Assembly: GCA_964531975.1 (NCBI GenBank) | Contig: CAZHFU010000001.1 | Location: forward strand, 11,051-75,050 | Reading direction: 5' to 3' | Source: an uncultured Anaerolinea sp. | Lineage (GTDB): Bacteria > Chloroflexota > Anaerolineae > Anaerolineales > UBA4823 | DNA length: 64,000 nucleotides | In this document: in pieces, positions 24,220 to 44,036 of the stretch | Position numbering within the stretch: the first letter of the stretch is position 1 | Layout of the letters: each line of letters opens with the position of its first letter | The notes under the pieces: generated by a model | Databases searched by the model: none | What the model was told of the DNA's origin: nothing | What the model saw: only the letters and a program-made list of their open reading frames with translations | Made by a program: the position numbers and the translations under genes

Positions 24220-24268
24220 GCACAATCAATGGGGGACGATTTCACGAATCGTATTTTTTGCAGTGCGG

Positions 24269-24922: not shown

Positions 24923-25068
24923 CCTCCATCATTTATGGAAAAACAAGCCCATTAAACCACACTTTAGCCGTTTTGTTTCAAGCGGTTTAAGGGTTGAACG
25001 GCCTGGCCGATGTTTGGTATCTGTTGTGTTGAGGCGAAGCGGCGCAACGCGCCGCGGGGCGAGCGTTA

Positions 25069-25899: not shown

Positions 25900-25963
25900 T
25901 CCCGCACCTCGAGTAAATTTTGGTCAACGCACCGGCGTCACGCGCCGGCATGCTTTAGCGTTG

Positions 25964-26790: not shown

Positions 26791-26829
26791 AGAGAGGGGG
26801 CAAGGCCGGTTGGCGCTTGCCCCCTCTCT
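26791..26829 (-). terminator. strong hairpin terminator closing the hydrogenase/FDH operon
   Basis: 14-bp perfect stem: AGAGAGGGGGCAAG (26791-26804) pairs with CTTGCCCCCTCTCT (26816-26829), with an 11-nt loop. It starts ~22 nt after the fdhA stop (26851). The U-tract on the minus strand is weak (TTGCTAATTG). Confidence 0.6.
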
Positions 26830-26850: not shown

Positions 26851-29628
26851 TTACCCTGCGCTCACTTTTACGGCGCAAATCTTGAACTCGGGTATCTTGG
26901 CGGTGGGGTCAAGGGCTGCCAGGGTGAGTTCGTTGGCGCAAGCTTCGGGGAAGTGGAAATTGGCGAAGACCATTCCGGGCGGAACCCGCTCTGTGACCCA
27001 GGCCTGCGCTTCGATTTTACCCCGGCGCGATTCCACACGCACAGGTTGTCCATTATCCAGGCGCAGATGGGCGGCGTCGCTGGGGTTAACTTCTATTAAC
27101 GCTTCTCCATAGACTTCCATCAGGCCCGCAGCGCGGCGGGTCATTTCGCCGCCGTGCCAATGGTACAAAACGCGCCCGGTGGATAGCAGCATGGGGTAGG
27201 CGTCGTCGGGCATCTCTTGCGGAGGAATATGTTCGATGGGGGCAAACTTGCCTTTGCCGCGTGTAAATTGGCCTACATGCAGAATGGGTGTGCCCGGGTG
27301 GGTGACATCTTTCACCGGCCAATGCAGGCGGTCGCCATTTTCCAGGCGCGGATAGGTGACGCCGGCGTAGGAGGGGGTGAGCGCGGCGATCTCGTTCAGC
27401 ATGGCGTCTGGGGCCGGGTAGACCCAACCAGCAAAGGGGGCCGATGGGTCTACCGTGCGGGTGGCGCTTTTTGCCAGGATGCGCTGGGCGATGGAGGCGA
27501 TGATCTGCCAATCGGGCAGCGCCTGGCCGGGAGGAGCCACGGCGGGGCGAACTAGCTGGATGCGCCGCTCGGTATTAGTGAACGTGCCATACTTCTCGGC
27601 GAAACTGGCCCCGGGCAGCAGCAAATCGGCATAGGCGGAGGTTTCGGAGGGGAAGATTTCTTGCAGGGCGATAAACTCGCATTCTTCCAGACATTGGCGA
27701 ATGTGCTGGCTGTTGGGGTCGCTCATCACCGGGTCTTCGCCCAAGATATAGAGGGCTTTGATCTTTCCGGTCTCGATGCCGGGGATCATTTCGGTCATAG
27801 TCAGGCCCACTTTATCCGGCAGGGAGACGCCCCAAGCGGCCTCAAATTTCTGACGAGACGCCTCTGCGGTGACGGGTTGATAACCGGCATAAACGTTCGG
27901 CAAGCCGCCCATGTCGCAGGCGCCTTGCACGTTGTTTTGTCCACGCAAGGGGTTCACGCCGCCGCCGGGAATGCCCAGGTTGCCAAGCAGCATTTGCAAG
28001 TTCGCCAGGTCCATTACATTGCGCACCCCCACAATGTGCTGGGTAATGCCCATCGCCCACATTACCGCCATGGGGCTGTTTAAGGCCAGGATTTCGGCGG
28101 CTTCGTAAAGTTTTTCCACCGGCACACGCGTAATGGCGCTTACGTTTTCAGGGGTGTATTCTTCCAGCACCGCTTGAAATTCCTCAAATCCCTCGGTGCG
28201 GGCATCGATGAAGGCCTGGTCTTGCCAGCCTTTCTTTAAAATGATATGCATGAGGCCGTTGATTAGAGGGATATCTGTGCCGGGGCGATGCCGCAAATGC
28301 AGGGTTGCAAATTCAGTAATATCGATGCGGCGGGGGTCGGCTACTACCAGTTTGACGCCGCGGCGAAGCACCGCCTGGCGGATCATTGCGCCGAACACGG
28401 GGTGTTGTTCGGTGGTATTTGAGCCAATGATGAACATGGAGGCGGCATGCTTAGCGATGTCTTCCATCGTGTTAGTCATTGCGCCCGAACCAAAGGAGGC
28501 GGCCAGACCGGCCACCGTGCTAGAGTGTCAGAGACGAGCGCAGTGATCGATATTGTTCGTACCGATGACTTGCCGCGCCAGTTTGTTCATCAGGTAATTT
28601 TCTTCGTTCAGACATTTGGCAGAGCAGAGCACTCCGATGCTATCGGGGCCATGTTGATCCCTGGCGCCGCCCAGTTTGTCGGCCATCAGGTTGAGAGCGG
28701 TATCCCAATCAATCGCCACCCAATCGCCGCGTCCATGGGGGCGGGGTGTGCCTTCGAGCAGGTAGCGGCGCGCCATCGGCTGGGTGAGGCGTTCGTGGTG
28801 GTGGATAAAATCGTAGCCGTAGCGGCCCTTGACGCATAAGTGATTGCCATTTACGGTTTCGCCAGGATGACTGGTGACCCGAATGACGCGCCCGCCGGGC
28901 ACATCGTCTTTCATGTTCAGGTCTAGCTGGCAGCCCACGCCGCAGTAGGTGCAAGTGGTGGTAACTTTGCGGTCGGCCTGGCCGGCAGACATTGACATTT
29001 TATTGTTGAGCGCGCCGGTGGGGCAGTAGGCTACGCACGCCCCGCACGATTCGCAGCGGGCGTCTAGTAAGGTTTGCCCGGCTCCTGCGGCCACATGTGT
29101 GCCGAAACCGCGCCCCGCCAAGGTCCACACAAAGCGGCCTTGCACTTCGGCGCAGGCGCGAATACAACGTGTACATACAATACATTTGTTTAGATCTACC
29201 CATAAAAATGGGTTGGGGTCGCTATCCACCACATGGATAGGGTGATCGAGCATATAGTCTTTTGGATCGAGGCCATAATAATGCACCCAGTGCATTAGTT
29301 CGGTTTCGCCCTGGCAATCATCGTAGCCCGCGTCGTAATAATTGGAAAGCAGCATTTTTAGGATGACCCGGCGCGAATCTGCCAGGTCTTCATTTTCGGT
29401 CGTGACTTGCATGCCCTCCTGAACCTCCAGGGCGCAGGAGGCCATCGGCGTGCGCCAACCTTTAACATCGACCACACACAGGCGGCAGCCGCCGTAGGGC
29501 GTCAGATCGGGGTGATCGCACAAAGTCGGTATGGTAATGCCCGCCGCTCTGGCGGCGCTTAGCACCGTGGACTTTGGTTCTACTTGGATTGTCTTACCGT
29601 CAATCGTCAATGTAACAAGTTTATCCAT
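26851..29628 (-). CDS. fdhA: selenocysteine-containing formate dehydrogenase alpha subunit (NuoG-type N-terminal Fe-S domain plus Mo/W-bis-PGD domain); UGA-Sec at 28528..28530
   Basis: Track ORFs 28528..29628 and 26851..28515 are in the same frame. The junction reads [29 protein letters not shown], the FDH active-site context. The N-terminus has a 2Fe-2S motif (CDHPDLTPYGGCRLC), two 4Fe-4S motifs (CIVCTRCIRAC, CESCGACVAYCP) and CTYCGVGC. The catalytic Arg context LRGQNNVQGACDMG is present. An AGGAGG RBS precedes ATG 29628. Confidence 0.88.
28498..28516 (-). promoter_or_regulatory. SECIS-like hairpin downstream of the in-frame UGA
   Basis: On the minus strand, 11 nt after the UGA: GGUGGCC (28516-28510), loop GGUCU (28509-28505), GGCCGCC (28504-28498). 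This gives a 7-bp stem including one G-U pair. The loop resembles the GGUC apical loop of the E. coli fdhF SECIS, as I recall it. Confidence 0.7.
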
Positions 29629-29722
29629 GGGACCTCCTAAAACACCGGATGAGTGAATTATATTGTATGTGACCTGGGAAGCCGGGGTTAGTGGTAAAGC
29701 TCCTAATAATAGAGAACAAATA

Positions 29723-30184
29723 TCATATTAGGATCAATTCTAAGGCTTGATCCAGGCGAGCTTGCGCGGTGGGACTAAGGCCGCGTTTGAAACCGAAGTT
29801 TTCGCCCTTAATGGACACCAGGCGTCCGGCGGGGCGGGATTGGAAGACCTGCTGAGTGATGGAAAGCAGCATTTCGGGGGTGAGGTGGTGGGTGAGAGGG
29901 CTGGTTTGTAAGGCCGGCTGCACCTCAACCACGCGTACGTCTTCCGCGTAAGCGCCGGTGTGGGCGTCTACAAAAATCACTTCATCATACGCGGCTATGT
30001 CTTCGCTCATTTCAGGGGTTAATTGGAGAACAAACCATAAGTCGGGGTCTAAGCCAATGGGGGAAAAGCCCTCTTCAACGGTAGAGCTGGGGCGGCCTAA
30101 ACGCTCGGCGATTTGCAGAAGAGCATACCAGGCCAATCCGTCGTCTTCGCGGTCGGGGTTGCCAAAACCAATAATCAGTTTCAT
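29723..30184 (-). CDS. hoxW: [NiFe] hydrogenase maturation endopeptidase
   Basis: N-terminus MKLIIGFGNPDREDDGLA (typical GNxxxxDDG protease motif), ~153 aa. I trimmed the start to ATG 30184; the track's 30286 adds 34 atypical residues. Confidence 0.85.
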   Translation of the reverse strand: MKLIIGFGNPDREDDGLAWYALLQIAERLGRPSSTVEEGFSPIGLDPDLWFVLQLTPEMSEDIAAYDEVIFVDAHTGAYAEDVRVVEVQPALQTSPLTHHLTPEMLLSITQQVFQSRPAGRLVSIKGENFGFKRGLSPTAQARLDQALELILI

Positions 30185-30347
30185 CGCAGCGTATTTATCC
30201 AGATGTGGAAAGCGGCGCAGGCCTATCGGTTGCCTGAACCACTTCCGCTCATTTCCATCGGTTTGCCGGAGTGATTGGCGAGACAAAACGAGTGGGGGCT
30301 GTTCAATATCTGGAAATTGAACAGCCCCGCGGGAAGGTTTTATGAAG

Positions 30348-31772
30348 TTATCGCGCCAGTTCGTCGATCACGCGCCCGGTGGGATCGAGCATTTCGATTT
30401 GGATCGGCATTTGACCAGCGGCATGGGTGGAGCAAGACAGGCAGGGGTCGTAGGCGCGCACCGCCGCCTCAACCCGGTTGAGCATGCCTTCGTGGATCTT
30501 GGGGCCGGTGATGTAGGTTTTGGCGACGCTATCTACGGCTTCGCACATGGCCCAGTTGTTATGGCCGGTGGCTACAATCAGGTTAACTCGTTCGAGCTGG
30601 CCTTGGTCGTTAGCCCAGTAGTGATGGAACAGGGTTCCGCGCGGCGCTTCCAACACCCCTACGCCCACGCCCTGGTAATTTTGCACCGTGTTGAGAATAT
30701 CGGTGCTGAGCGTATCGGGATCGTTCAAGATCGCCTCGATGCGTTCGAGGGCGAAGATCACTTCGATCAGGCGGGCATAGTGGTAGTAGAGCGTATTTTC
30801 CACCGGGCGGCCTGGATTGAGCGCCTTGAATTTTTGCAGCTCGGCGTTCGCCAGGGGTGTGTCGATGCTGTCGCAGGCGTTCAGGCGGCCCAGCGGCCCA
30901 ACCCGGTAGACGCCTTGCGGGAAGCCCATCTTCTTGTAGTAGGGGAACTTGAGGTACGACCAATCTTGCACCCGTTCTGCAATGTAATCCAGGTAGTTAT
31001 CGGCGTTGAATTTCTCTAGCTGAACACCATTTTGATCAACCAGGCGCACATCGCCCTGGTAAAGCTCCAGGCTGTTGTGGGGGGTTACCAGGCCCATATA
31101 GCCGGTAGAGAAGACGGCGAACTTATTGATATCTTCGGCGTTCTTTTCCGCCCAGTCTTTGATAATCTGGACGCCGATTTGGGCAGTGGCAATGTTTTCC
31201 GCCACGTCGGCCAGGAGAAGGTCGCGGTCGGCCTGGCTGAGGGCCTTGTTGACCCCCCCGGTGATGGCGAAGTTGGGGTGAATGCGCCGCCCGCCCAAAA
31301 CGCGGATGACGTTTTGGCCGAATTTGCGCAGGCCGATGGCCTTTTTGGCAAGCTCGGGGTTAATGGAGGCCAGGCCAATCACATTGCGCACGGCCGGGTC
31401 GGCGTCGAAGCCCAGCAGCAGATCGGGGCCGGCCAGCTCGAAGAAGTGCATGCCGTTGGACTGCACAATCTGGCCCATGTGCATCAGCTCGCGCAGCAAG
31501 TTGGCCGGGCGCGGGGGTGGGCAGCCGTACACCTCATCGGCAGCCTTGGCCGCCGCTAGGTGATGGCTCACCGGGCAGATGCCGCAGATGCGAGGGGTGA
31601 TGGAGGGCATTTCGATGACCAGGCGGCCTTCGCAAAACTTTTCGAAGCCGCGGAATTCGTTAATATGCAAGTAAGCATGATCAACCTGGCCGGCGTCATT
31701 CATGCGAATGGTGACCTTGGCGTGCCCTTCGATACGGGTCACGGGTTCAATGGTAATTTTTTGCATCGTCAT
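30348..31772 (-). CDS. hoxH: [NiFe] hydrogenase large subunit, group 3 (Hox-type)
   Basis: The N-terminal Ni-binding motif is [10 protein letters not shown]. The C-terminal motif DPCLSCSTH is followed by a 24-aa extension that serves as the endopeptidase substrate. PVTRIEGH lies near the N-terminus. Start ATG 31772 has an AAGGTGG RBS; the track uses GTG 31781. Confidence 0.92.
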
Positions 31773-31803
31773 AATTTCCACCTTCTCTCAATACCAGTCA
31801 GGT

Positions 31804-32346
31804 TTAGTGCCAGTGGAGCAGCTCGCCCTTGAGTTCGGGCTTGCGACCTTGGGCCAGTTCGCTTAACACATAGAAGATAACATCGGCTTCGGGCGGGCAG
31901 CCCGGCACACTAATGTCTACCGGAACGACTTCGTGAATGGCGCGCACCGGGGTCATTTCGGCTAATTCAGGATCGGAAGGGATTTGCCCCACGCCGTCGG
32001 TGCTTTCTGTCTCCAGGTAAGCGCGGTTGAGCGCTTCTTGCATGCCACAGAAATTGCGCAGCGCAGGCACACCGCCAAACACGGCGCAGTCACCTAAGGC
32101 GACCAGGATCTTGGAGCGGGCGCGCATTTTGCGGGCCACTTCTTCGTTGGCGGAATTGTTGATCCCGCCTTCGAGAATGCCCACGTCCACCCCGTCTTCG
32201 TCCGGCTCTTTCAAATCGGTGATGGGGGTAGCGCGTATATCGGCCAATGCAGCCACTAACAGCAGACGTTCATCCATATCAAGCAGCGACATATGGCAGC
32301 CGGCGCATCCGGCCATCCAGTCGCTTGCAATTTTAGGTTTTGCCAT
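31804..32346 (-). CDS. hoxY: [NiFe] hydrogenase small subunit, group 3 (single proximal 4Fe-4S type)
   Basis: 180 aa. The Cys ligand contexts are GCAGCHMS, GDCAVFGG and PGCPP, and there is no Tat signal. Confidence 0.9.
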   Translation of the reverse strand: MAKPKIASDWMAGCAGCHMSLLDMDERLLLVAALADIRATPITDLKEPDEDGVDVGILEGGINNSANEEVARKMRARSKILVALGDCAVFGGVPALRNFCGMQEALNRAYLETESTDGVGQIPSDPELAEMTPVRAIHEVVPVDISVPGCPPEADVIFYVLSELAQGRKPELKGELLHWH

Positions 32347-32372
32347 GATTTCGGTATCCTTCCTGTTTACCG

Positions 32373-34316
32373 TTAATTGATTTGCAGCGCTACCGGCGAC
32401 ACACGGCGCAGCAAAGCGTTCTTCCAGTCGTCGCGGGTAGGAATATTAAGCATCATGCTCAGGTTGGCGAGCGTTTGGGCGGTGGTGGGCGCATCGTCGG
32501 GAGCTTGAATAACGGCCCTGGCAGCTTGCAAACGTCCATCGAGGTTGAGGTAATGGCCGGTTTGTTCATTCCAGGCGACGGTAGGCAGCACCACATCGGC
32601 CATTTCCGTGGCAGGCGAGGCATAAACAGCCTGAACCACTTTGAAGGGCGCTTTTTCGATGCGGCCCAGCAAGCGGGAGGTAGCGTAGTCGTCGGCCAGG
32701 GCCAGGAACACGGCCTGCTGTCCGTTAATTGAAAAGACTTTATCCAGGCCATATTGTGCAGCAGCCAGGCTGTTGGCTTCGCCCTTCATGCTCAAGAGGG
32801 CGCAAGTTTTGCCCAGGGCGCGCAGATCTTCAACCAGGCCAAACACCGAGCGCAGCGCGTTCATATCGGTTTGAGCGGTGAGGCCCTTGCCGTAGATGAC
32901 CACCGGGCGTTGGGCGGCGAAGATAGCCGCGCCCAGTTTCTCGGCGGTGGTTTGGGCTTCTGCCGCACAACCGGCGGATAGATTTTTGATGTATTGGCGT
33001 ACGCTTTCGATGACGGCTGAATCTTGCCCGGCTTCGGGTTCTAACACCATGCGGGCGACTGCCTTCATGCTGTTCTTGCCGGGGTCAATCACGGCCAGGG
33101 GTACATTGTTGGGCAGCAATCGCTTGATGAAGAAGCCGGCCACCTGGTGGCTGGAGGTTAAGTCGGCGCCAATGACGACCGCCATATCGGTATCTTTCAA
33201 ACTATCGAGGCGGCTTTCGTAGGGGCAGCCCAGGGCTTCAGCCATGCGAGACGCCCCGGCGGTGGGGTAGCCTTCTTCTATGCTGGTGACCATGGCGCTG
33301 CCCAATCCTTCGGCGAACAGATTGCGGAAGGCGAAGAGGGCTTCTGCGGGTAGGCGAGTGGAGGCGATGGCCGCCACGCCATCGCCATTCCGCCCGGCCA
33401 GGGGGGCCAGCCTGGCGGCTACCAGGCTCATGGCTTCATCCCACGTGGCGGGCTGCAGCGCCCCATCCTTACGCACCATGGGGGTGGTAATGCGCTTGCG
33501 CATGTCTTTCATGGGGTCAAAGCGACCTTTTTCGCATATTAACCCCTGGTTGAGGGCTGCGTCCCAATCGCCTTCGATGCGGGTGAGCTGGTTGTCGCGC
33601 GTCCATAGGGTGACCCCGCAGCCCACCGAGCAACCGACGCAGGTGGAGCTTTCGGCTTCCCAATTTCTGCGATGGCCTTTGTAGGCGCTGGCGCGGTCGA
33701 TGATGGCGCCGGTGGGGCACACCTGGGCGCACATGCCGCACGAAATGCACGACGATTGCCCTAAAGGCAGACCGAAATCTGCGGTGATGAGCGTGTCGGT
33801 TCCGCGTTCGCTGGCGGTTAAGGTGAAGTTGCCCACCAGGTCGGAACAGGCGCGGATGCAGCGGCGGCAAAGGATGCAGCGGTTGTGATCCAGCACCAGG
33901 TCGGCGTGGCTGGCGTCTAGTTCGAACTTCTTCCACTGGGGCGGGAAGTCCCAGGAGGTCATGCCTTCATGGTAGGCGGCATTTTGCAATTCGCAATCGC
34001 CGCCAGAGACCTGGCAGAAGGGGCAGAAGTGATTGCGTTCGCTAAACAGCATATCCAGGATGAACTTGCGCGAAGTGCGCAGGTTTACGGTGTCGGTCTC
34101 AACTACCATGCCATTTGCTACCGGAAGTGTGCATGAGGCGGTGGGAGCGCGCCAGCCTGCAATCTCTACGATGCACAAGCGGCAGCCGCCAAAAGGCTTC
34201 ACTGCGGGGTGGTCGCACAGGGTGGGAATTTCGATGCCGGCCTGGCGGGCAGCTTGAAGAACGGTGGTTCCTTCAGTGGCTTCAATTACTTTACCGTTAA
34301 TGGTTATTTGAACCAT
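32373..34316 (-). CDS. NuoG-like Fe-S subunit in the HoxU position (degenerate formate-dehydrogenase-like C-terminal domain)
   Basis: ~647 aa. It has 2Fe-2S (CDHPAVKPFGGCRLC), a His-ligated 4Fe-4S (HFCPFCQVSGGDC), two 4Fe-4S (CILCRRCIRAC, CISCGMCAQVCP) and CVGCSVGC...C. A molybdopterin-oxidoreductase-like domain follows but lacks the CARLUH active-site segment. Start ATG 34316 follows a GAAGGAG RBS. Confidence 0.85.
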   Translation of the reverse strand: MVQITINGKVIEATEGTTVLQAARQAGIEIPTLCDHPAVKPFGGCRLCIVEIAGWRAPTASCTLPVANGMVVETDTVNLRTSRKFILDMLFSERNHFCPFCQVSGGDCELQNAAYHEGMTSWDFPPQWKKFELDASHADLVLDHNRCILCRRCIRACSDLVGNFTLTASERGTDTLITADFGLPLGQSSCISCGMCAQVCPTGAIIDRASAYKGHRRNWEAESSTCVGCSVGCGVTLWTRDNQLTRIEGDWDAALNQGLICEKGRFDPMKDMRKRITTPMVRKDGALQPATWDEAMSLVAARLAPLAGRNGDGVAAIASTRLPAEALFAFRNLFAEGLGSAMVTSIEEGYPTAGASRMAEALGCPYESRLDSLKDTDMAVVIGADLTSSHQVAGFFIKRLLPNNVPLAVIDPGKNSMKAVARMVLEPEAGQDSAVIESVRQYIKNLSAGCAAEAQTTAEKLGAAIFAAQRPVVIYGKGLTAQTDMNALRSVFGLVEDLRALGKTCALLSMKGEANSLAAAQYGLDKVFSINGQQAVFLALADDYATSRLLGRIEKAPFKVVQAVYASPATEMADVVLPTVAWNEQTGHYLNLDGRLQAARAVIQAPDDAPTTAQTLANLSMMLNIPTRDDWKNALLRRVSPVALQIN

Positions 34317-34364
34317 ATGATGCACTCCTTCGACGTGATAAACACTTTGATTAATTTGTTTTAT

Positions 34365-36014: not shown

Positions 36015-36041
36015 GCTCACTCCTTTACCCGTTCTACACCG

Positions 36042-36539
36042 CTAGACGTATTTGCTCAAGATTTCAGGCAGCTGATCTGGCGTGACATTGCCATACATAT
36101 CTTCGTCAATCACTACCACCGGGCCAATGCCGCACACCCCCAGGCAGCTGGTCGTTACCAGGGAGAAGCGGTTATCCGGTGTGGTTTCGCCGGCTTTCAG
36201 GGCGAGGGCGTCTTGCAGGGCTTGCCAAACCTGGCGGCCGCCCATGACGTGGCATGGGGCGCTTTCGCAAAACAGTACCACATGCCGCCCGCGAGGCTTG
36301 GTGGAGAGCATATGATAGAAGCTTGCCAGGCCGTAGAGCAGGCTGGTTTGCACGTGCATCCCGTCTTTGCTCGAAAGCAGTTGACGGCGCATTTCGACCA
36401 GCGCTTCACCAGGAATGTACCCGTAAGTGTTGTTGATCTCTAGCAAGATCGGAATGATCGAATCGTGGTGGCGGCCATTCTTTTCGATGGCGGCTTCTAC
36501 AATCGCAGTGAATCCATCTTTGGTCAACATATCGGTCAT
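36042..36539 (-). CDS. hoxE: NuoE-like 2Fe-2S subunit (module 1)
   Basis: The Cys ligand contexts are CESAPCHVMGG and SCLGVCGIGPVV. I trimmed the start to ATG 36539, because AGGAGG lies 6 nt upstream and the track start at 36647 overlaps the preceding gene. Confidence 0.88.
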   Translation of the reverse strand: MTDMLTKDGFTAIVEAAIEKNGRHHDSIIPILLEINNTYGYIPGEALVEMRRQLLSSKDGMHVQTSLLYGLASFYHMLSTKPRGRHVVLFCESAPCHVMGGRQVWQALQDALALKAGETTPDNRFSLVTTSCLGVCGIGPVVVIDEDMYGNVTPDQLPEILSKYV

Positions 36540-36549
36540 GTGCATCCTC

Positions 36550-38358
36550 CTAAAGAGCCACAGTGAGAGGTTCCGAGACAACTTTAACCGCGTTAAAGTT
36601 GCAGACCTGCAAACAAATGCCACAGCGGATACAGGTATTGATATCAATTACGTGCGTATGGCGGCGTTCGCCGGAAATGGCTTCCACCGGGCAGTTGCGG
36701 GCGCATACGGTGCAGCCGGTGCAGGCTTCCTCGGAGATATCATAGCGAATGAGGGGCTTGCAAACCTTGGCCGGGCAGTATTTGCCGTAGATATGCGCTT
36801 CGTACTCGTGGCGGAAATGTTTAAGGGTGCTGACAACCGGGGCAGGCGCACCCTGGCCCAGGCCGCACAAACTGTTCTTGCTCACTTCGTGGCACAATGT
36901 TTCGAGCTTTTCGATGTCGCCATGTTCGCCATCGCCGTTGCAAATCTTTTCGAGCAGATCGAGAATACGGCGTGTGCCGATGCGGCAAGGGGTGCACTTG
37001 CCGCAGCTTTCATCTTGGGTGAATTCCATGAAGTAGCGGGCGATATCCACCATGCAGGTTTCGTTATCCAAGATCACCAGGCCGCCGGAACCCATCATGG
37101 CGCCTGCAGAGATGAGCGATTCATAATCAATTTGGTAATCGAGGTATTGCTCTGGCAGACAGCCGCCCATTGGGCCGCCGATTTGGGCGGCTTTGAAGCC
37201 TTTATCATCCACAATGCCGCCGCCCACATCGTACACGACTTCGCGCAAGGTGATGCCCATGGGAACTTCGATCAGGCCGGTGTTGCGCACGTCGCCGGCG
37301 ATGGCGAAGGTCTTTGTGCCTTTCGAGCGTTCGGTTCCCATCGATGCAAACCATTCGGGGCCGCGTAAAATGATTTGCGGGACGTTGGCGTAGGTTTCGA
37401 CGTTGTTAACGTTCGACGGCTTTTTCCACAACCCGGCCTGGGCGGGGAAGGGCGGGCGCGGACGGGGTTCGCCGCGGCGGCCTTCGATCGAGGCGATGAG
37501 GGCGGTTTCTTCGCCGCACACAAAGGCGCCTGCGCCCATGCGCACTTCCAGGTCGAATGAGAAATTGCTGCCCATGATGTTTTCGCCCAGCAAGCCCAGC
37601 TCGCGCGCCTGGCGAATGCCGATCCTCAGGCGTTCAACGGCGATGGGATATTCGGCTCGACAGTAGACGAATCCCTGGCTGGCTCCGATGGCGTAGGCGG
37701 CGATGGTCATGCCTTCGATGACCGAATGCGGATCGCTTTCAAGGACGCGCCGGTTCATGAACGCGCCGGGGTCGCCTTCATCGGCGTTGCAGATGACGAA
37801 CTTCTGATCGCCGGGGTTTTGGCGGCACAGCGACCATTTTCTCCCCGTCGGGAACCCGGCTCCGCCGCGCCCGCGCAAGCCGGAACTGCTGACGGTCTCG
37901 ATCACGGTTTCGGGGGTCATCTCGTTGAGCGCCTTCGCCAACGCCATGTAGCCGTCTTCGGCGATATATTCTTCGATATTGGTGGGATCGATTTTGCCGC
38001 AGTTGCGCAGCACGATACGCACTTCTTTTGGCTTAGGCGGGCCAAGCTCTTCATCGGCGGCGGCGGCGGCTTTTAACAGGAATTTACTCACCACCCGCCC
38101 TTTGAGGAAATGTTCTTCCACCAGGTAGGGGATGTCATCTGCAGAGAGATTGATGTAATGCACGTTCTCCGGGTAGACGACCAGGTCTGGCCCGAATTGA
38201 GTGGGTTCGCCCAGGCGAGAGGTTTCCAACACCTGGACCTCGGCAATCAGACCCTGCGCCACCAACTCGTCGTGCAGCGCGTCGATGATCTCGTACGCGC
38301 CTCGCTCCAAACATTCTGGGTCTACCGATACGAGTACATGTGAACGATAAAATGGCAT
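36550..38358 (-). CDS. NuoF/HydB-like subunit with C-terminal 2x[4Fe-4S] ferredoxin domain (module 2, bifurcating-type architecture)
   Basis: 602 aa. It has GLRGRGGAGFPTGRKW, CNADEGDPGAFMNR, ESCGKCTPCRIG and SLCGLG. The C-terminal tail carries CTGCTVCARNCP and CIRCGICLQVC. Confidence 0.88.
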   Translation of the reverse strand: MPFYRSHVLVSVDPECLERGAYEIIDALHDELVAQGLIAEVQVLETSRLGEPTQFGPDLVVYPENVHYINLSADDIPYLVEEHFLKGRVVSKFLLKAAAAADEELGPPKPKEVRIVLRNCGKIDPTNIEEYIAEDGYMALAKALNEMTPETVIETVSSSGLRGRGGAGFPTGRKWSLCRQNPGDQKFVICNADEGDPGAFMNRRVLESDPHSVIEGMTIAAYAIGASQGFVYCRAEYPIAVERLRIGIRQARELGLLGENIMGSNFSFDLEVRMGAGAFVCGEETALIASIEGRRGEPRPRPPFPAQAGLWKKPSNVNNVETYANVPQIILRGPEWFASMGTERSKGTKTFAIAGDVRNTGLIEVPMGITLREVVYDVGGGIVDDKGFKAAQIGGPMGGCLPEQYLDYQIDYESLISAGAMMGSGGLVILDNETCMVDIARYFMEFTQDESCGKCTPCRIGTRRILDLLEKICNGDGEHGDIEKLETLCHEVSKNSLCGLGQGAPAPVVSTLKHFRHEYEAHIYGKYCPAKVCKPLIRYDISEEACTGCTVCARNCPVEAISGERRHTHVIDINTCIRCGICLQVCNFNAVKVVSEPLTVAL

Positions 38359-38402
38359 AATGATCCTTCTTTGTATTCTATGCTATGAAGCGCGCCGTCA
38401 AA

Positions 38403-38765
38403 CTAAATGACGAATTCTTTGACGATTTGGCCGCCAATGACGTGCCGGCGCATAATCTCACGAGCCACTTCGGGGGTAACTTTGCCGTAGGAAACAGCCG
38501 GCTGATCGCCCACGATAACCTGGATGATCGGTTCAAACGAATCGATGCCGATGTTGCCGGTTTGGCGCACCATAATCTGGCTGAGATTTTCGGTTTCGAT
38601 GATTTCCAGGATGGCCTTCATGGTGTCGCGCGCGCCCGCGGCGATGCCAGGTGTGCCCATACCAACCACAATTTGCACGTGCCCAGGCTCGTTTTTGATA
38701 TCGCGTTTTTGCAAAGCCTCTTCGCGAATACGCTTCAGGTCTTCGATTGATTTAATGGTAGGCAT
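38403..38765 (-). CDS. thioredoxin-like [2Fe-2S]-ferredoxin-fold protein with no cysteines (cluster-less)
   Basis: 120 aa. VVGMGTPGIAAGA and QTGNIGIDSFEP align to the canonical C-x-G-T-x-C and T-G-C-x-G-x-C-x-x-x-P patterns of HydB-N/standalone Trx-like ferredoxins. The protein contains zero Cys. Confidence 0.75.
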   Translation of the reverse strand: MPTIKSIEDLKRIREEALQKRDIKNEPGHVQIVVGMGTPGIAAGARDTMKAILEIIETENLSQIMVRQTGNIGIDSFEPIIQVIVGDQPAVSYGKVTPEVAREIMRRHVIGGQIVKEFVI

Positions 38766-38785
38766 TTGTAATCTCCTGTTTATTA

Positions 38786-39406
38786 TTAGCTGCCAGACTG
38801 GCCTGAGCCAATGCGATTGGCGCGGGTCAGATGGGGGTTGAGGTTCGTGCGAATTCGACTTACACCTTCTTGAAGGGTGGTGCGCAGGAAGGCTAGCACG
38901 TCGGGATTAGTTAGCAGATCGGGGTCGCCCAAAGCCAGTTTAATTTCAGCGTCGTCAAAGATGAAAGGCTCCAGGGCCTGGCCGGCGGCGGTGCGGGCCT
39001 GGTATTCCAGCCGCCAGTGAATTTCAGGGTGGCCCACCACCAGGGTGAGCATTAGCCCGGCCACATCGCCCAAGGGCATGCGATCAATGTGGGTATGCTG
39101 GAAATCTACGGCCACGGTGGCGCCCTTGCCCAGGCGCGAGTTGATCGACATTTGACCGCGGCACATTTCGGCGGCGGCTTTTAGAAGCGGCAGACCCAGG
39201 CCCACCTTACGAGTGGTGCGGCTGGTGACAAATGGGTCGAGGGCGGCGCGGGCCGTTTCTTCGCTCATCCCCCGCCCATTATCCTGGACGCGCAGCGTTA
39301 GTCGGTCGGCCAACAAATCCTCTTCGATGAAGATTGTGATTTGGGTGGCGCGCGCCGCAACGCTGTTCTCGGCAATATCCAGGAGGTGCAGGGACAATTC
39401 TTTCAT
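38786..39406 (-). CDS. stand-alone GHKL (histidine-kinase-like) ATPase embedded in the diaphorase module
   Basis: It has an N-box HLLDIAENSVAA, a G1 box VQDNGRGM and a G2 box GLGLPLL. There is no DHp/phospho-acceptor His domain. I trimmed the start to ATG 39404-39406, 5 nt after the upstream stop. Confidence 0.8.
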   Translation of the reverse strand: MKELSLHLLDIAENSVAARATQITIFIEEDLLADRLTLRVQDNGRGMSEETARAALDPFVTSRTTRKVGLGLPLLKAAAEMCRGQMSINSRLGKGATVAVDFQHTHIDRMPLGDVAGLMLTLVVGHPEIHWRLEYQARTAAGQALEPFIFDDAEIKLALGDPDLLTNPDVLAFLRTTLQEGVSRIRTNLNPHLTRANRIGSGQSGS

Positions 39407-39410
39407 GCGC

Positions 39411-39923
39411 TTATTTTGGTTCCTGAACTTTACGCAGAATTTGGGGGAATTTGTTTGGTTTGACGCGCCCTTGAGCTTCGTCATCCACTACCACAACCGG
39501 GGCCTGGCTGCATGCTCCCACGCAGCGGCAGACTTCGAGGGTAATTAGCCCATCGGCGGTGGTCTGTCCTATGTCGATGCCCAGGGCTTGCTTGGCTTTT
39601 TCGATTAGCTGCGGTGTGCCGCCGACATAGCAGGCGGTTCCCATGCAGAACTTGATGACGTGCTTGCCGCGCGGCTGCGTGGTGAAGAAGGAATAGAAAG
39701 TCACCACCCCATGCACAGAGCTGACGGGGACGTGCAGCTTCTGGGCCACGTAAGCTTGCATCGGTTCGGAAATGTGGCCGATGCGATTTTGTAGATCATT
39801 GAGTACCACCATAACTGCACCGGGTAAATGCTCGTTTTCCGCGAGTACCTGGTCGATGATGGCGCGCTGCTCGGGCATGCTAATCGGGTCGTTTACGGGA
39901 ATGTTATCTAGTTGAAGTTTCAT
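39411..39923 (-). CDS. NuoE/HydC-like 2Fe-2S subunit (module 2)
   Basis: 170 aa. The Cys ligand contexts are CMGTACYVGG and CRCVGACSQAPVV. It is the first gene after the AT-rich spacer. Confidence 0.88.
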   Translation of the reverse strand: MKLQLDNIPVNDPISMPEQRAIIDQVLAENEHLPGAVMVVLNDLQNRIGHISEPMQAYVAQKLHVPVSSVHGVVTFYSFFTTQPRGKHVIKFCMGTACYVGGTPQLIEKAKQALGIDIGQTTADGLITLEVCRCVGACSQAPVVVVDDEAQGRVKPNKFPQILRKVQEPK

Positions 39924-40087
39924 TCATCTCTCCAAATGTGAAAAAACGCACAATAAGTTTACCTGAATAGTCTAATATTTGTAATGGCAGAATGTCATCT
40001 TTACGTGTGATAGTTGTCTATGTAACCGACACGGCAGGTAACACGATTACGTCGTTTCCGGCGAAGGATGACGGATTGTTTTTCCTA
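39924..40087 (-). promoter_or_regulatory. AT-rich intergenic spacer, likely promoter/operator of the diaphorase-hydrogenase-FDH operon
   Basis: This is the only gap longer than 100 nt inside the 16.5-kb cluster, and it is much more AT-rich than its surroundings. The minus strand carries TGACAT...TATTAG-like hexamers and a GGAGAG RBS before ATG 39923. No hexamer pair is a clean consensus. Confidence 0.35.
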
Positions 40088-40828
40088 TTATTCAGTGGCG
40101 CGCAATGAGCGTCCTTTGACGCCCATCACCGCCCATTCGATATCTTGCACGGTGAGCGCTTCCACTTGGTAAAGGTTTACAGATTGAAAATCCGCGGCGT
40201 AATGGACATCTCCGCCTAACACAAGCGGGTAACGCTGAATTTGCGGGAAGCGCCGGCGCGCTTCGAGCGGAGGGCAGCGGCGCGAAACCTCCAGCACTTC
40301 GACCTCCAACCCAGGGGGGACAAACCCCAAGGTGGGCAGTAATCCAAACGCCTGGCGGTCTACATGGGCGGGGATGGGCAGCCCACCCAGGGCGCGCACC
40401 CCACTTACGGCTTGTTCGAGCGTCATGTGGCAAGATACGATCAGGAGGCGTTTTTCTTCGCCCAGCAGATCGCCGGTGTAATCGACCAGGTATTGCTCGC
40501 CAATCTTTTCGGGGTCGTTTTCCAGGTGGGGCAATTGGGCGTCTACGATGGCTTGCCAGGCGGCCAACTGGCCGATTGTATCGAACAAGCATAGTAAATG
40601 CACATCCTCGCGGGTTTGTAGCTCCATGCCGGGGAGCACCAACAGGGGTGTGCCTTGGGCGGCTTCCATCACCGCGGCGCAGTTGCCGGTCGCGTTGTGG
40701 TCGGTAATAAAGATGCAATCTAAACCAGTCTCTAAAGCGCGCGTAACGATCACGGGGGGAATCATTTCCACCCCGGCGCACGGGGATAACACCGTATGAA
40801 CGTGCAGCTCGATCCGCGCTGTGATCAT
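40088..40828 (-). CDS. PHP-domain phosphoesterase
   Basis: 246 aa. It has the N-terminal metal motif ELHVHTVLSPCA, then ITDHN and later His/Asp motifs typical of the PHP fold. Confidence 0.8.
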   Translation of the reverse strand: MITARIELHVHTVLSPCAGVEMIPPVIVTRALETGLDCIFITDHNATGNCAAVMEAAQGTPLLVLPGMELQTREDVHLLCLFDTIGQLAAWQAIVDAQLPHLENDPEKIGEQYLVDYTGDLLGEEKRLLIVSCHMTLEQAVSGVRALGGLPIPAHVDRQAFGLLPTLGFVPPGLEVEVLEVSRRCPPLEARRRFPQIQRYPLVLGGDVHYAADFQSVNLYQVEALTVQDIEWAVMGVKGRSLRATE

Positions 40829-40834
40829 GGCCTT

Positions 40835-41182
40835 CTAACCGGCTGGAAGGCCCATCTCGTAAAGCCGACCCACCACTTCATATAATGTCAGGGGGGTAGA
40901 CAGCAAGGTCACTTCTTGATCGGCGGCCTTGGCTAACACGTCGGCTTCGGGCACGCCGTTTTCGGTAATGATCACGGCGCTTTGTTCGAGCAGCGCCGCG
41001 ACCGCCACCACATTGATGTGAGATTGCAGCGTGACCCACACCCCGCCGTTTTTAGCGCCCGCCATAACGCAGCTAAGCAGATCGGAGGCGTAGCCCGAGG
41101 TGGGGAAGGATTGGTTGAAATCTTGCTGATTGGTGAGAACTTTGAGGTCTAAAGCTTCGATTATATTTTGCAGAGTAATCAT
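40835..41182 (-). CDS. DRTGG-domain protein
   Basis: 115 aa. It matches the DRTGG-family pattern (ASDLLSCVMA...VWVTLQSHINVVAVAAL...VTLLSTPLTLYEVVGRLY). Its ATG overlaps the upstream TAA by 1 nt. Confidence 0.8.
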   Translation of the reverse strand: MITLQNIIEALDLKVLTNQQDFNQSFPTSGYASDLLSCVMAGAKNGGVWVTLQSHINVVAVAALLEQSAVIITENGVPEADVLAKAADQEVTLLSTPLTLYEVVGRLYEMGLPAG

Positions 41183-42183
41183 TAGTCGTCTTCTCCACTG
41201 AAATGAGAACTTTCGCGAAAACTTTCATCCGGTTGCAGATAGATTTTCATTTCTAACTTTGTGCCTTTGCCTGCGGTGGATTGAAGGCTCATTTTATCGA
41301 CGCAGCGTTTAATGTTGAGCAGGCCCATGCCGGCCCCAAAGCCTAATTCGCGGATTTGCTCCCCGGCGGTGGAATAGCCCGCTTGCATGGCAAGGGGAAC
41401 ATCGCTAATGCCGGGGCCTTCATCGATGGTTTGCATTAGGATTCGGTGGGGTTCAATTTCGACTCGGATGATGCCGCCGGAGGTGGTGTGAATGATGAGG
41501 TTCATTTCGGCTTCATAGATGGCAATGCCGCAGCGGCGTGCAATTTGCGGGTTCGCGCCCAGGCGCAGCAGCGCGCGCTTAATGTTGCTAGAGGCATCGC
41601 CGCCATGCAAAAAGTCGCCGTTTTTGATGCGGTAGCGTAAGATCAGGCTGGTGCGGTCGGATCGTATGTCTTCGAACAGGTGGCTGGCGCGGTAACGGCG
41701 CACTTCTTCGGTTTGATAGTCGGTTTGCAAGGCGTTCAGCAGGCCGCGGGTTATGTCGCCCTTGGTAATCATGCCCACCAGGGCGCCTTCGTGGTTAATT
41801 ACTGGCAGGCGGCCCACTTTGCGCCGTCCGAAGGTCTCCATCGCTTCCACGGCGGCGTCAAATTCCTGAATGGTGATCAGTTCGGAACTCATATATTGCG
41901 AGATAGGGGCATTAAGATCATTCGCCTGCATGGCGCGAATCAGATCTTCCAGGCTAACCACGCCACACAGCTTTCCTTTGCATACCACCGGTAGGCCTGA
42001 AATGCGGCGCTGTCGCAGCGTTTCGAGGACGTCGTTCATCGTATCGGTTGGCGACGCAGTGCTGAGGTCGGTAGACATGACCTCGCGCACTTTGAGGTCG
42101 TAAGCTAACTCTTCAACACGACTGATGAGGTTGGCGTCTTCATCCGTAACAATTCGCTTACCGGAGGGGGATAAGGCAGCCAT
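41182..42183 (-). CDS. CBS-pair plus GHKL Ser-kinase-like (RsbW/SpoIIAB-type) protein
   Basis: Two CBS motifs lie in the N-terminal half. The C-terminal half has the N-box YEAEMNLIIH, G1 IDEGPGI and G2 GFGAGMGL. I trimmed the start to ATG 42183, directly after the upstream stop at 42185. Confidence 0.8.
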   Translation of the reverse strand: MAALSPSGKRIVTDEDANLISRVEELAYDLKVREVMSTDLSTASPTDTMNDVLETLRQRRISGLPVVCKGKLCGVVSLEDLIRAMQANDLNAPISQYMSSELITIQEFDAAVEAMETFGRRKVGRLPVINHEGALVGMITKGDITRGLLNALQTDYQTEEVRRYRASHLFEDIRSDRTSLILRYRIKNGDFLHGGDASSNIKRALLRLGANPQIARRCGIAIYEAEMNLIIHTTSGGIIRVEIEPHRILMQTIDEGPGISDVPLAMQAGYSTAGEQIRELGFGAGMGLLNIKRCVDKMSLQSTAGKGTKLEMKIYLQPDESFRESSHFSGEDD

Positions 42184-42184
42184 G

Positions 42185-42556
42185 TTATTCTCCCAGGCAT
42201 TCGGGCAGATTGTTCTCGAAACTAGGCAGCCCGGCGCGATAGAGGCGGCCACAGACCTCGAACATGCCATAGGGGGTGGTGATGAGAGGAATGCCTTCGG
42301 CCTCGGCTAGCTCGATGGTTTCTTTGGGGGGCTGTTTGCCGCGCACAAACACAATGGCGCGCACATCGGCCATTTGCGCGGTGCGTACTACCTGCGGATT
42401 GCATAGTCCGGTGAGCAAGACAGCTTCGGGTTGAATGGAGGCCAGCACATCGCTCATTAAATCCGCTCCGCAGCCCCCGGCCACCTCCTGTTCAAGAGAA
42501 ACTTGAGTGGTAAAGCATGTTCCGCGAACGATTTCGATAACATCTTTGATTTTCAT
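42185..42556 (-). CDS. DRTGG-domain protein
   Basis: 123 aa. GADLMSDVLASIQPEAVLLTGLCNPQVVRTAQMADVRAIVFVRGK...IPLITTPYGMFEVCGRLY. Confidence 0.8.
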   Translation of the reverse strand: MKIKDVIEIVRGTCFTTQVSLEQEVAGGCGADLMSDVLASIQPEAVLLTGLCNPQVVRTAQMADVRAIVFVRGKQPPKETIELAEAEGIPLITTPYGMFEVCGRLYRAGLPSFENNLPECLGE

Positions 42557-42568
42557 AGACTATTTCGC

Positions 42569-43381
42569 TTACTTAAAATCGATCCTTTCGGGTATTGTAT
42601 AGACAATGAAGCGTTGTTTGGCGGCATAGCCAATTAAAGTTATGCCGTATTGCTGCGCCAGATTTAGCGATAGGGTAGAGGGGGCGGTGCGCGAAATGAG
42701 CAGGTGCGCGCCAATGCGGTGCGCTTTCTGAAGCATTTCAGAGGAAATGCGCCCGGTGGTTAGCACAACCTGGGCCGGCTGCGGCGGCGGCTGCATGAGC
42801 AGACGGCCGGCGAGCTTATCGAGTGTGTTGTGGCGCCCAATATCATCGGCGCTAAACAGAACGCGTTGGCCGTCGCTTAAAACGGAGGTGTGGATACCGC
42901 CCGCCAATCGATATAAGCTTTGGGATTCGAAGAGAGAATCTACCAGATCGGTGATTTGTTGGGTTGAATAGCGACCGACTTCTTCCGCCGGAATAGCTAA
43001 GGGGGCGGATGCGGGCGAATCTTCCTGAGAGTGTACGCTGGTGGCGCCGCCGGTACAGCCGCTGGTGCGGCGCCAATCGGGGGGTTGGGCGACGGTTTTG
43101 TTGAGCCACACATCGATATTATCGCCGGCGTCGCACACGCGCACCGAGGCGGTTTCATCGTAACGTTGGATCACGCCTTCGTTGAACAGAAAGCCGAGCG
43201 CCAGCGCTTCAAGATCAACCGGGGTACACATTAAGGTCAGCCAGGTGGCGCCGTTGACAGAGAGAGAAACCGGTTGTTCGACAATAACCTGGCCGAGGTT
43301 GGGGCGCGCCCCTTGGGCGTCAACTTGCAGCCAGGTGAAGGGCCGACTGGGGGGGAATGGATTAGAATGAGAGATAGTCAT
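42569..43381 (-). CDS. fdhD: formate dehydrogenase accessory sulfurtransferase FdhD
   Basis: 270 aa. EQPVSLSVNG, LALGFLFNEG, the Cys loop RRTSGCTGG, GGIHTS, IGRHNTLDKL, and a C-terminal ISRTAPSTLSLNLAQQYGITLIGY. Confidence 0.88.
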   Translation of the reverse strand: MTISHSNPFPPSRPFTWLQVDAQGARPNLGQVIVEQPVSLSVNGATWLTLMCTPVDLEALALGFLFNEGVIQRYDETASVRVCDAGDNIDVWLNKTVAQPPDWRRTSGCTGGATSVHSQEDSPASAPLAIPAEEVGRYSTQQITDLVDSLFESQSLYRLAGGIHTSVLSDGQRVLFSADDIGRHNTLDKLAGRLLMQPPPQPAQVVLTTGRISSEMLQKAHRIGAHLLISRTAPSTLSLNLAQQYGITLIGYAAKQRFIVYTIPERIDFK

Positions 43382-43544: not shown

Positions 43545-44036
43545 TTATTCACGCAGCATGATCCACATCATTTCATTAAACACCCGCAGCCGGTAAAGGA
43601 TAGCGGCCACACGCCACAAGCGTTGGAACGCCGGAGGTAGGGTGGGCGGCGTTACGCGCCGGAAACCAAAGCGGAGGTAGAAGCTGCCCATGGATGGGCG
43701 GCAGGTGAGGTAAAGCGGGCCGGGGTGAGTTTCAACCAGGCGCGCAATAATGGCCGAGGCTGCGCCTTGACCACGGGCCTTCTCCACCGTGGCGATGGAA
43801 GCCAGTTCTTGGGTTCCATCGCCATGGCGTTTGACTTGACCACAAGCTAAGATTTGTCCATTGCCATCAACCGCCAGCCAGAAACGCGGCCAGTGCAGCC
43901 CCAGGGGGTTAATATGCACCTGCCGGATGAGGGCGCGGATGGCCGCCTGGTCGGCGGGTGTGGCTGGCCGCAGGATAAATGGCGAGGCGTGGGGCGAAGC
44001 CGCCTCGCCCGGTTGATCTGTCAGGGCAGCGTCCAT
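43545..44036 (-). CDS. GNAT family N-acetyltransferase
   Basis: 163 aa. It has the acetyl-CoA-binding motif ARGQGAASAII (Q/RxxGxG/A) and a C-terminal FYLRFGF. Confidence 0.85.
   Translation of the reverse strand: MDAALTDQPGEAASPHASPFILRPATPADQAAIRALIRQVHINPLGLHWPRFWLAVDGNGQILACGQVKRHGDGTQELASIATVEKARGQGAASAIIARLVETHPGPLYLTCRPSMGSFYLRFGFRRVTPPTLPPAFQRLWRVAAILYRLRVFNEMMWIMLRE

Follow-up and report, generated by a model that had tools for sequence, protein, structure and literature searches.

The DNA studied here raises the question of how many redox enzymes one gene cluster encodes, and which electron-input subunits serve which catalytic subunit. The stretch analysed (the window) is 64 kb long and comes from an uncultured Anaerolinea sp. 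of the Chloroflexota (assembly GCA_964531975.1, contig CAZHFU010000001.1, positions 11,051 to 75,050); its cluster at 26851-43381, on the minus strand, joins a NiFe hydrogenase, two distinct pairs of NuoE- and NuoF-type subunits (NuoEF pairs, named E1F1 and E2F2), a regulatory cassette and the alpha subunit of a selenocysteine (Sec)-containing formate dehydrogenase (FdhA). Read from 43381 down to 26851, the cluster consists of 16 open reading frames (ORFs), all co-directional on that strand, and the ORF map agrees in this with an initial annotation made from the sequence alone. Its general description of a redox operon built from these parts is supported as well, and domain searches with Pfam and NCBIfam recovered the domain content that it listed, with marginal scores for the second DRTGG-domain protein and the PHP-domain protein. 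The reading favoured here, to which we give a probability of about 0.5, is that a single core of HydA, HydS and HydL (HydASL) would carry alternative bifurcating and NADH-only heads, and that FdhA would borrow them. The genes from E2 to fdhA, and the RNA element inside fdhA, are the following.

26851..29628 (-) FdhA, FdsA-type alpha subunit with a NuoG-type Fe-S N-terminus; 9WXB_B 715 bits and 6TG9_A 706 bits, full length; TIGR01591
28475-28533 (-) SECIS element at the UGA codon of fdhA; Rfam RF01989 SECIS_3, 32.5 bits, E 6e-4, full model length
29723..30286 (-) ORF of a hydrogenase maturation endopeptidase (protease), about 153 aa from ATG 30183; TIGR00072 48.4 bits, above cut-off
30348..31781 (-) HydL, NiFe large subunit, 477 aa; 7T2R_D 572 bits; motifs RICGIC and DPCLSCSTH
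31804..32346 (-) HydS, NiFe small subunit, 180 aa; PF01058; 7T2R_E, full length, 163.5 bits
32373..34325 (-) HydA (BfuA-type, NuoG-like), 650 aa; closest solved relative 7T2R_A, 299 bits
34365..36020 (-) F1, second NuoF-type flavoprotein, 551 aa; Acetomicrobium mobile HydB 566 bits, 48% identical
36042..36647 (-) ORF of E1, second NuoE/HydC-type [2Fe-2S] subunit, likely start about 36545; PF01257 134 bits
36550..38358 (-) F2, HydB/BfuB-type flavoprotein, 602 aa; A. mobile HydB 841 bits, 61% identical, end to end
38403..38765 (-) Cys-less thioredoxin (Trx)-like ferredoxin homologue, 120 aa, in an HndB/HydD-like position; NF041612 E 2.5e-8 (weak), no Pfam match
38786..39484 (-) ORF of a GHKL-only ATPase-like protein, likely start 39406, about 206 aa; PF02518 55.5 bits
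39411..39923 (-) E2, HydC/NuoE-type [2Fe-2S] subunit and partner of F2; PF01257 156 bits

The hydrogenase core and its two NuoEF pairs

When relatives were ranked against all solved structures, the NiFe-HydABCSL of Acetomicrobium mobile (PDB 7T2R) supplied the best or second-best match for all five core subunits (chains D, E, A, B and C). HydL scored 572 bits against 7T2R_D, ahead of the group 3d chain 5XF9_D (427 bits) and of MvhA (411 bits); its top NCBIfam match, VhuA, fell below the cut-off, and both of its motifs are kept in 71-72 orthologs. HydS carries the proximal [4Fe-4S] cluster only. In HydA, Pfam recognises Fer2_4, NADH-G_4Fe-4S_3, Fer4, Molybdop_Fe4S4 and Molybdopterin and finds no Molydop_binding; the predicted clusters are a [2Fe-2S], a His-ligated [4Fe-4S], 2x[4Fe-4S] and a [4Fe-4S] within a cofactor-less molybdopterin-like domain, and their Cys and His ligands are all invariant among 32 homologues. 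The idea that HydA departs in architecture from its A. mobile counterpart, based on a first match limited to residues 5-420, was rejected: a second stretch aligns residues 429-607 to positions 464-643 of 7T2R_A, so that the two share the same architecture. The short HoxU 5XF9_B (242 aa) matches residues 8-215 of HydA only.

Because the 7T2R chains are the nearest relatives and the connecting subunit has 650 aa against the ~240 aa of HoxU, the enzyme, first identified as a HoxEFUYH, is strictly speaking no such hydrogenase, and on this evidence it classifies as a relative of the cytoplasmic NiFe-HydABCSL (NiFe-Bfu) enzyme instead. The labels HoxY and HoxH, and the phrase 'two complete NuoE/F/G modules', were likewise interpretations rather than observations of the initial annotation. 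Papers on metagenome-assembled genomes (MAGs) do name the Anaerolineae enzyme HoxEFUHY, and the orthologs bear the precomputed Pfam entry PF27537 'HoxH'. Like the group 3d enzymes HoxEFUYH/HoxFUYH (Hydrogenophilus thermoluteolus 5XF9; Synechocystis Hox), the enzyme is a cytoplasmic NiFe hydrogenase whose small subunit has one cluster and whose NAD(H) module is of the NuoE/F type. Besides the size of the connecting subunit and the scores of the large subunit, the window differs from them in having two NuoEF pairs instead of one, both kept in 51 of 80 related loci, and in an F1 without the AFM/GGPSG motifs that a 2026 preprint describes for cyanobacterial HoxF.

With the A. mobile enzyme (PDB 7T2R/7T30; PMC8880783) the window has in common the five-subunit set A, B, C, S and L, the single-cluster HydS, the cofactor-less C-terminal domain of HydA with its extra [4Fe-4S] cluster, and an F2 in which the five B2-site ligands (Cys476 among them), the AFM motif and a ferredoxin-type tail are all present. 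The differences are an extra, divergent E1F1 pair between F2 and hydA, the lack of the N-terminal B5 [2Fe-2S] ligands in F2, and a host that belongs to the Chloroflexota rather than the Synergistetes. The Trx-like protein, the GHKL protein, the cassette, fdhD and the Sec-containing FdhA found here go unmentioned for the five-subunit enzyme in the consulted passages of its description.

As described in the literature, residues A202/M204 and clusters B2-B5 separate bifurcating flavoproteins from their non-bifurcating homologues (PMC9304861). F2 contains Complex1_51K, SLBB and NADH_4Fe-4S domains followed by a C-terminal Fer4 dicluster with 8 Cys (2x CxxCxxCxxxC), and, in A. mobile HydB numbering, the motifs AFM (A202/M204) and GGPMG and all five B2-site ligands (C438/C476/H525/C531/C536). 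The domain set of BfuB with its C-terminal 4Fe-4S part (B3/B4) is thus present in F2, and is absent from F1 taken alone. Of the four N-terminal B5 [2Fe-2S] Cys, a feature of the Bfu family, one is kept, and by the published signatures F2 is Bfu-type apart from B5. F1 has TFK and GGSSG in the corresponding positions, no ferredoxin tail, none of the four B5 Cys, and a B2 site of C438, Thr476, H525, C531 and C536, where the Bfu family allows either Cys or Thr at 476; its sequence is a mixed one, with a flavin pocket of non-bifurcating type, no ferredoxin domain and a retained B2 site. The earlier proposal of one bifurcating and one non-bifurcating type of NuoF agrees with these signatures.

The two types are constant among relatives. 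Among the F1, F2 and F3 orthologs taken together, a single one, an F1, has no H-x5-C-x4-C pattern. All 62 F1 orthologs are tail-less and carry TFK, and AFM occurs in every full-length member of the ~57 orthologs of F2 and of F3 (the flavoprotein of a third pair, E3F3, introduced below); one F2 is truncated. The phylogeny of the NuoF copies that had been proposed as a check was obtained in the form of a neighbour-joining tree with A. mobile HydB as reference, and it resolved three clean clades, namely F1, F2, and F3 together with A. mobile HydB. The F2 of the window lies in the hydrogenase-linked F2 clade and outside the FdhA-linked F3 clade. A recent duplication as the origin of F1 and F2 was considered and rejected, given their 49% identity and separate deep clades; E1 and E2 are 32% identical, the E1 orthologs measure 155-165 aa, and the closest solved relatives of E2 are HydC 7Q4V_C (133 bits) and then A. 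mobile 7T2R_C (125 bits). In another form of F2, seen in locus L014 (4269-7403, ~1025 aa), Fer4_20 and Pyr_redox_2 domains (GltD/NfnB-like, NAD(P)H-FAD) replace the 2x[4Fe-4S] tail after the B2 site, and the same ~1025-aa form is found in L020, L024, L031, L035, L036, L045, L066, L075, L078 and L083 (L numbers denote single loci of the comparison below). These homologues hint at NADP(H) as a second partner.

Between E2 and F2 lie the GHKL-only protein, which has no HisKA domain and whose orthologs measure 179-194 aa, and the Trx-like protein, of whose orthologs 33 have three Cys and 21 have none. In the B5 region of the F2 orthologs, 26 keep three Cys and 19 keep one. The losses are paired: a Trx-like protein without Cys goes together with one Cys in the N-domain of F2 (38060-38358) in 19 loci, and three Cys in each go together in 18, with one exception. 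This apparently joint loss of both [2Fe-2S] sites suggests that the Trx-like protein and F2 form one working unit. HndABCD of Desulfovibrio fructosovorans and the HydABC(D) of Firmicutes and Thermotogae have the same order of a NuoE-like subunit, a small Trx-like ferredoxin and a NuoF-like subunit with Fe-S domains at both termini; they differ in having an [FeFe] catalytic subunit and a Trx-like protein that binds a [2Fe-2S] cluster, whereas that of the window has no Cys.

Related loci and the partner of FdhA

At least 574 genomes with a relative emerged from an alignment-based pattern scan in which each species was represented by one genome, and the best 80 of these, all titled as Chloroflexota lineages, were compared after classification of their loci by tblastn with the 16 window proteins. 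HydA homologues at 52-63% identity are abundant, under the names Chloroflexota, Anaerolineae or Thermoflexales. Upstream of hydA, both NuoEF pairs are present in 51 of the 80 loci, E1F1 only in 8, E2F2 only in 2 (L036 and L063) and neither in 6, while a contig end cuts the upstream side in 13; either pair can thus be the sole neighbour of hydASL. Downstream gene content was counted where 6.5 kb or more of sequence was available, which holds for 52 loci, 31 of them with two pairs. FdhA directly follows the protease in 11 of the 52, a third pair (E3F3) and then FdhA follow in 7, and there is no FdhA in 34; the corresponding numbers among the 31 two-pair loci are 8, 6 and 17. FdhA therefore stands beside the hydrogenase in 18 loci, spread over several Chloroflexota orders, and it occurs only at two-pair loci (14/31 versus 0/13 of the others; Fisher p = 0.003). 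The synteny survey suggested earlier as a safeguard against a chance rearrangement gave a clear result, with the gene order recurring in dozens of species genomes and the direct protease-FdhA order in at least 11, including Thermoflexales, Anaerolinea and Brevefilum. Judged by gene order and homology, the cluster is one member of a conserved and widespread Chloroflexota family of NiFe-HydABCSL-type operons.

These counts bear on the likeliest rival explanation, in which one transcript would encode two enzymes, a non-bifurcating NAD hydrogenase made of E1F1, HydA and HydS/L, and a bifurcating formate dehydrogenase made of E2F2 (with the Trx-like protein) and FdhA. The contiguity of E1-F1-hydA-S-L and the TFK/GGSSG pocket of F1 fit such a division, as do the restriction of FdhA to loci with E2F2 and the AFM and tail type of FdhA's own F3, where present, which is sister to F2. 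However, no FdhA lies within at least 6.5 kb at 17 of the 31 two-pair loci, six loci retain E2F2 besides the E3F3 next to FdhA, and E2F2 is the sole pair beside hydASL in L036 and L063; moreover, the F2 of the window falls in the hydrogenase-linked clade, and A. mobile HydB is nearer to F2 (841 bits) than to F1 (566 bits). Since both pairs are kept in the 17 loci without FdhA and in the 6 with a third pair at FdhA, both probably belong to the hydrogenase, with FdhA as an optional 3' add-on. The assignment of E1F1 to the hydrogenase and of E2F2 to FdhA, made in the initial annotation, does not agree with this comparison, and the division into two enzymes is considered unlikely.

Some loci depart from the common order. 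In L010 (9995-14694), hydA-hydS-hydL-protease form an isolated group that diverges from mreB-mreC-PBP2-minC; no NuoEF is encoded within 10 kb, and the diaphorase must be encoded elsewhere or another partner used. L009 (1-10000) keeps DRTGG2 and the genes of the PHP, GHKL and Trx-like proteins ahead of E1-F1-hydA but has no E2 or F2, as though the two-pair arrangement had undergone a deletion; downstream, on the other strand, lies another pair of NiFe small and large subunit genes. L073, from a MAG of Brevefilum fermentans, reads F2-E1-F1-HydA-S-L-protease-FdhA; the genome paper of this organism found no definitive hydrogenase (PMC5481317). In many relatives (for example L002/L044, 14736-21255), the slot 3' of the protease holds a cyclic nucleotide (cNMP)-binding regulator and hypA/B/F/D/E. 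At least 10 of the 80 loci have hypA/hypB near the cluster, mostly with more hyp genes, and in L002 they lie 3' of the protease; a search for hyp genes across the 64-kb window returned none.

The FdhA of the window has an in-frame TGA at 28528-28530, where the frame reads HCARL-TGA-HSS and the active-site string is CARL-U-HSS. This codon lies on the SECIS_3 match, in agreement with the selenocysteine-containing formate dehydrogenase claimed before; the match is below the gathering score, and it was the only RNA element returned by the Rfam scan of 18.5 kb. Its hairpin is GUGGCC-GGUCU-GGCCGC with the loop GGUCU, and loop and spacing presumably match those of E. coli fdhF. In L016, L067 and L080 the FdhA reads HCARLCHS, with Cys for selenocysteine, and most others are split at the TGA as in the window. 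In L028 (16300-18291) and L080 (6071-8023) the F3 frame continues into the N-part of FdhA, with ~600 extra residues and 23-25 Cys, which looks like a natural F3-FdhA fusion and suggests that this type of FdhA docks on a NuoF-type subunit. In their N-terminal docking domain, the FdhAs that directly follow the protease ('direct' FdhAs) are 61-74% identical to that of the window, and the split Sec-type FdhAs linked to E3F3 are 44-49% identical, with catalytic parts that are 61-66% identical. The divergence of the docking domain suggests that the 'direct' FdhAs are adapted to a different partner; the FdhA tree is compatible with either loss or gain of the dedicated E3F3 pair.

Two known kinds of formate dehydrogenase offer comparisons. 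FdhA resembles the alpha subunit of FdsABG (Rhodobacter capsulatus 6TG9/6TGA) over its full length, at 706-715 bits, with NuoG-type N-terminal Fe-S domains and a Mo/W-bisPGD domain with Sec-His, and the cluster also encodes an FdhD/FdsC-type sulfurtransferase. It differs in its selenocysteine active site and in the absence of an adjoining FdsB/FdsG: no NuoEF pair adjoins fdhA, so that the dedicated beta and gamma subunits of the FdsABG type are missing, and the nearby NuoEF pairs are all orthologous to the hydrogenase-linked F1/F2. The Fdh-Bfu of Gottschalkia acidurici and the FdhFeFe-Bfu (Hyt-Fdh) of Clostridium autoethanogenum (PMC9304861) likewise combine a pterin formate dehydrogenase with a BfuBC-type core, and the related Chloroflexota loci with a dedicated E3F3-FdhA unit, in two of which F3 is in frame with FdhA, resemble them in this. 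The window's FdhA, in contrast, has no dedicated BfuBC, its association with the hydrogenase is not strict in the family, and the hydrogenase is of the NiFe rather than the FeFe type.

A NiFe supercomplex like FdhFeFe-Bfu (Hyt-Fdh) or HDCR, in which HydASL, FdhA and one or both NuoEF pairs would interconvert formate with H2 and CO2 directly, would have a precedent in the bifunctional FdhFeFe-Bfu (PMC9304861). It would suit the co-directional, close-set genes, the lack of a diaphorase of FdhA's own, and the bracketing of the hydrogenase genes by fdhD at the 5' side and fdhA at the 3' side in the window, L058 and L067. The obligate co-occurrence of the two enzymes seen in HDCR, Hyt-Fdh and FHL is nevertheless not found here, as 34 of 52 loci have no FdhA and hyp or unrelated genes in its slot; FdhA has its own pair in 7 loci, as an independent enzyme would, a terminator-like hairpin lies 3' of hydL, and no connecting Fe-S subunit of the HycB/HytE type is encoded, all of which makes such a complex quite improbable. 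The least probable explanation is that FdhA is a neighbour without functional meaning, in a variable slot (hyp genes, a cNMP-binding regulator, E3F3-FdhA or nothing), with its own promoter at a TATAAT-like box in the 94-nt spacer, with partners encoded elsewhere and with an fdhD-FdhA association across loci that is not significant (p = 0.14), against which stand the recurrence of the protease-FdhA order in at least 11 species genomes of several orders, the closer docking domains of the 'direct' FdhAs and the absence of an alternative NuoEF in 64 kb.

A proposed assembly of core, heads and FdhA

The gene content, homologies, signatures and conservation observed suggest how the parts might assemble, how FdhA might share them and in which direction electrons might flow. 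The catalytic core would be HydA-HydS-HydL, matured by C-terminal proteolysis, and would be served by two non-equivalent NADH-flavoprotein heads. E2/F2 with the Trx-like protein would form a bifurcating-type head that couples H2 to NAD(H) and ferredoxin together, and the old paralogue E1/F1 would couple H2 to NAD(H) alone, so that the heads could swap on the same HydASL core, with a confurcating form for high H2 pressure and an NADH-only form for low H2 pressure. FdhA, with its NuoG-type docking domain, has no pair of its own, and the 64-kb window encodes no NuoE/F/G beyond those of the cluster; for these reasons FdhA would have to borrow a head, most simply one of the operon's. Formate/CO2 and H2/H+ would then share modules for NAD(H) and possibly for ferredoxin.

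Several points weigh against one core with alternative, shared heads. It is E1-F1, and not E2-F2, that lies immediately upstream of hydA, for which reason a single complex holding both heads is possible. F1 keeps the His and Cys of the B2 site, which are absent from non-bifurcating homologues (PMC9304861), so that its assignment rests on the pocket motifs together with the missing tail; the tail by itself is not decisive, because the tail-less cyanobacterial HoxF is reported to bifurcate (2026 preprint), and F1 lacks the AFM/GGPSG of that protein too. B5, called invariant in Bfu enzymes (PMC9304861), has been lost from F2 in this lineage. Finally, fdhA could be expressed separately, given the strong hairpin 3' of hydL and the 94-nt gap in front of fdhA, and the partner of FdhA could be encoded outside the window.

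Regulatory cassette, transcript layout and possible physiological meaning

The remaining features of the cluster are the genes at its 5' end and three non-coding elements.

40088..40828 (-) PHP-domain phosphoesterase; PF02811 26.0 bits, at or just below cut-off, position conserved
40835..41182 (-) DRTGG-domain protein 2; PF07085 23.2 bits, just below cut-off, position conserved
41182..42270 (-) ORF of the CBS-GHKL protein; PF00571 in two stretches, PF02518 and PF13581 (HATPase_c/HATPase_c_2)
42185..42556 (-) DRTGG-domain protein 1; PF07085 31.2 bits, position kept in related loci
42569..43381 (-) fdhD, formate dehydrogenase accessory sulfurtransferase; PF02634 219 bits, TIGR00129 160 bits, above cut-off
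39924-40087 (-) AT-rich spacer of 164 nt between cassette and structural genes; promoter-like match 39998-39969
30295-30328 (-) 13-bp GC-rich hairpin followed by a T-run, directly 3' of the hydL stop
26791-26829 (-) terminal 14-bp hairpin 3' of the fdhA stop; AGAGAGGGGGCAAG...CTTGCCCCCTCTCT

The DRTGG/CBS-GHKL/DRTGG/PHP cassette keeps its position at the 5' end among related loci and is a candidate controller of the hydrogenase operon. The CBS-GHKL protein, whose orthologs measure 325-335 aa, matches the TIGR01925 anti-sigma F factor (E 2.5e-12), a likeness to Ser kinases of the SpoIIAB type; the PHP protein is the putative phosphatase of the cassette, and the two DRTGG proteins are 27% identical. 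Histidine-kinase-like, DRTGG and PHP genes adjoin many hydABC operons of Firmicutes and Thermotogae, and the cassette resembles the front end of those of the Firmicutes; a description of DRTGG/PHP cassettes beside hydrogenases was looked for in the literature and not found. A more detailed proposal, namely that the HydASL core swaps heads and lends the same heads to the Sec-containing formate dehydrogenase, with the choice set post-translationally by the cassette according to energy or redox state, is doubtful at present. Upstream of the cassette, fdhD occupies the same 5' position in L058, L061, L062, L064, L067 and L082.

Several ORFs begin too far upstream, judging from ortholog lengths and, for the protease, from a TIGR00072 match that begins at residue 37; the corrected starts are ~36545 for E1, ~39406 for the GHKL protein, ~42183 for the CBS kinase and ATG 30183 for the protease. 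The stop of F2 is then ~4 nt from the likely start of E1, which links both modules tightly. Because of the new protease start, a third long spacer of ~164 nt appears between hydL and the protease, which, with its 13-bp hairpin, had been missed from a list of gaps that was otherwise right about the 94-nt and 164-nt spacers; the 14-bp hairpin after the last stop was also confirmed. The hydL hairpin may act as an attenuator or terminator, or it may stabilise the mRNA. Across 52 related loci, the spacer between hydL and the protease folds strongly and has a median length of 131 nt; just 4-10 nt separate the two genes in L004 and L005, the closest relatives. Together with the TATAAT-like box in the 94-nt spacer 5' of fdhA (29629-29722), the hydL hairpin could set the ratio of structural-gene to protease/fdhA transcripts. 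The AT-rich spacer at 39924-40087 is a candidate internal promoter, and comparable gaps of 106-135 nt are found in L002 and L003. Both flanks of the cluster encode proteins with N_BRCA1_IG (Ig-like) domains, five paralogues at 22759-26668 and 44021-45307 (-), apparently unrelated to the redox genes.

The NiFe-Bfu type has been described with some six members, in a Synergistetes sub-clade, plus a few archaeal ones (PMC9304861), and the A. mobile enzyme appears to be the only characterised NiFe-HydABCSL. No NiFe-Bfu family of Chloroflexota, two-pair arrangement or attached FdhA without its own pair was found described in the literature. The type can now be recognised in hundreds of Chloroflexota species genomes, where automatic annotation mostly calls it formate dehydrogenase, NuoG or Hox. 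The constant pairing of F2 with F1 also provides a ready comparison for the features that make a NuoF-type flavoprotein bifurcate, a question reopened by the 2026 Hox preprint. The arrangement would concern specialists in electron bifurcation and in anaerobic syntrophy, although what is proposed of its function is drawn wholly from sequence.

Growth of cultured Anaerolineaceae improves in the presence of partners that consume H2. As strict fermenters, these bacteria give off H2 and often formate as well (PMC5481317), and heads shared between hydrogenase and FdhA fit this physiology. Such sharing would explain concretely how, as the H2 pressure varies in anaerobic digesters and sediments, fermentative Anaerolineae get rid of NADH and reduced ferredoxin by forming H2 or formate. 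If the swapping of heads under control of the cassette were true as well, the operon would work as a switchable, modular redox valve for H2 and formate that the Chloroflexota have conserved.

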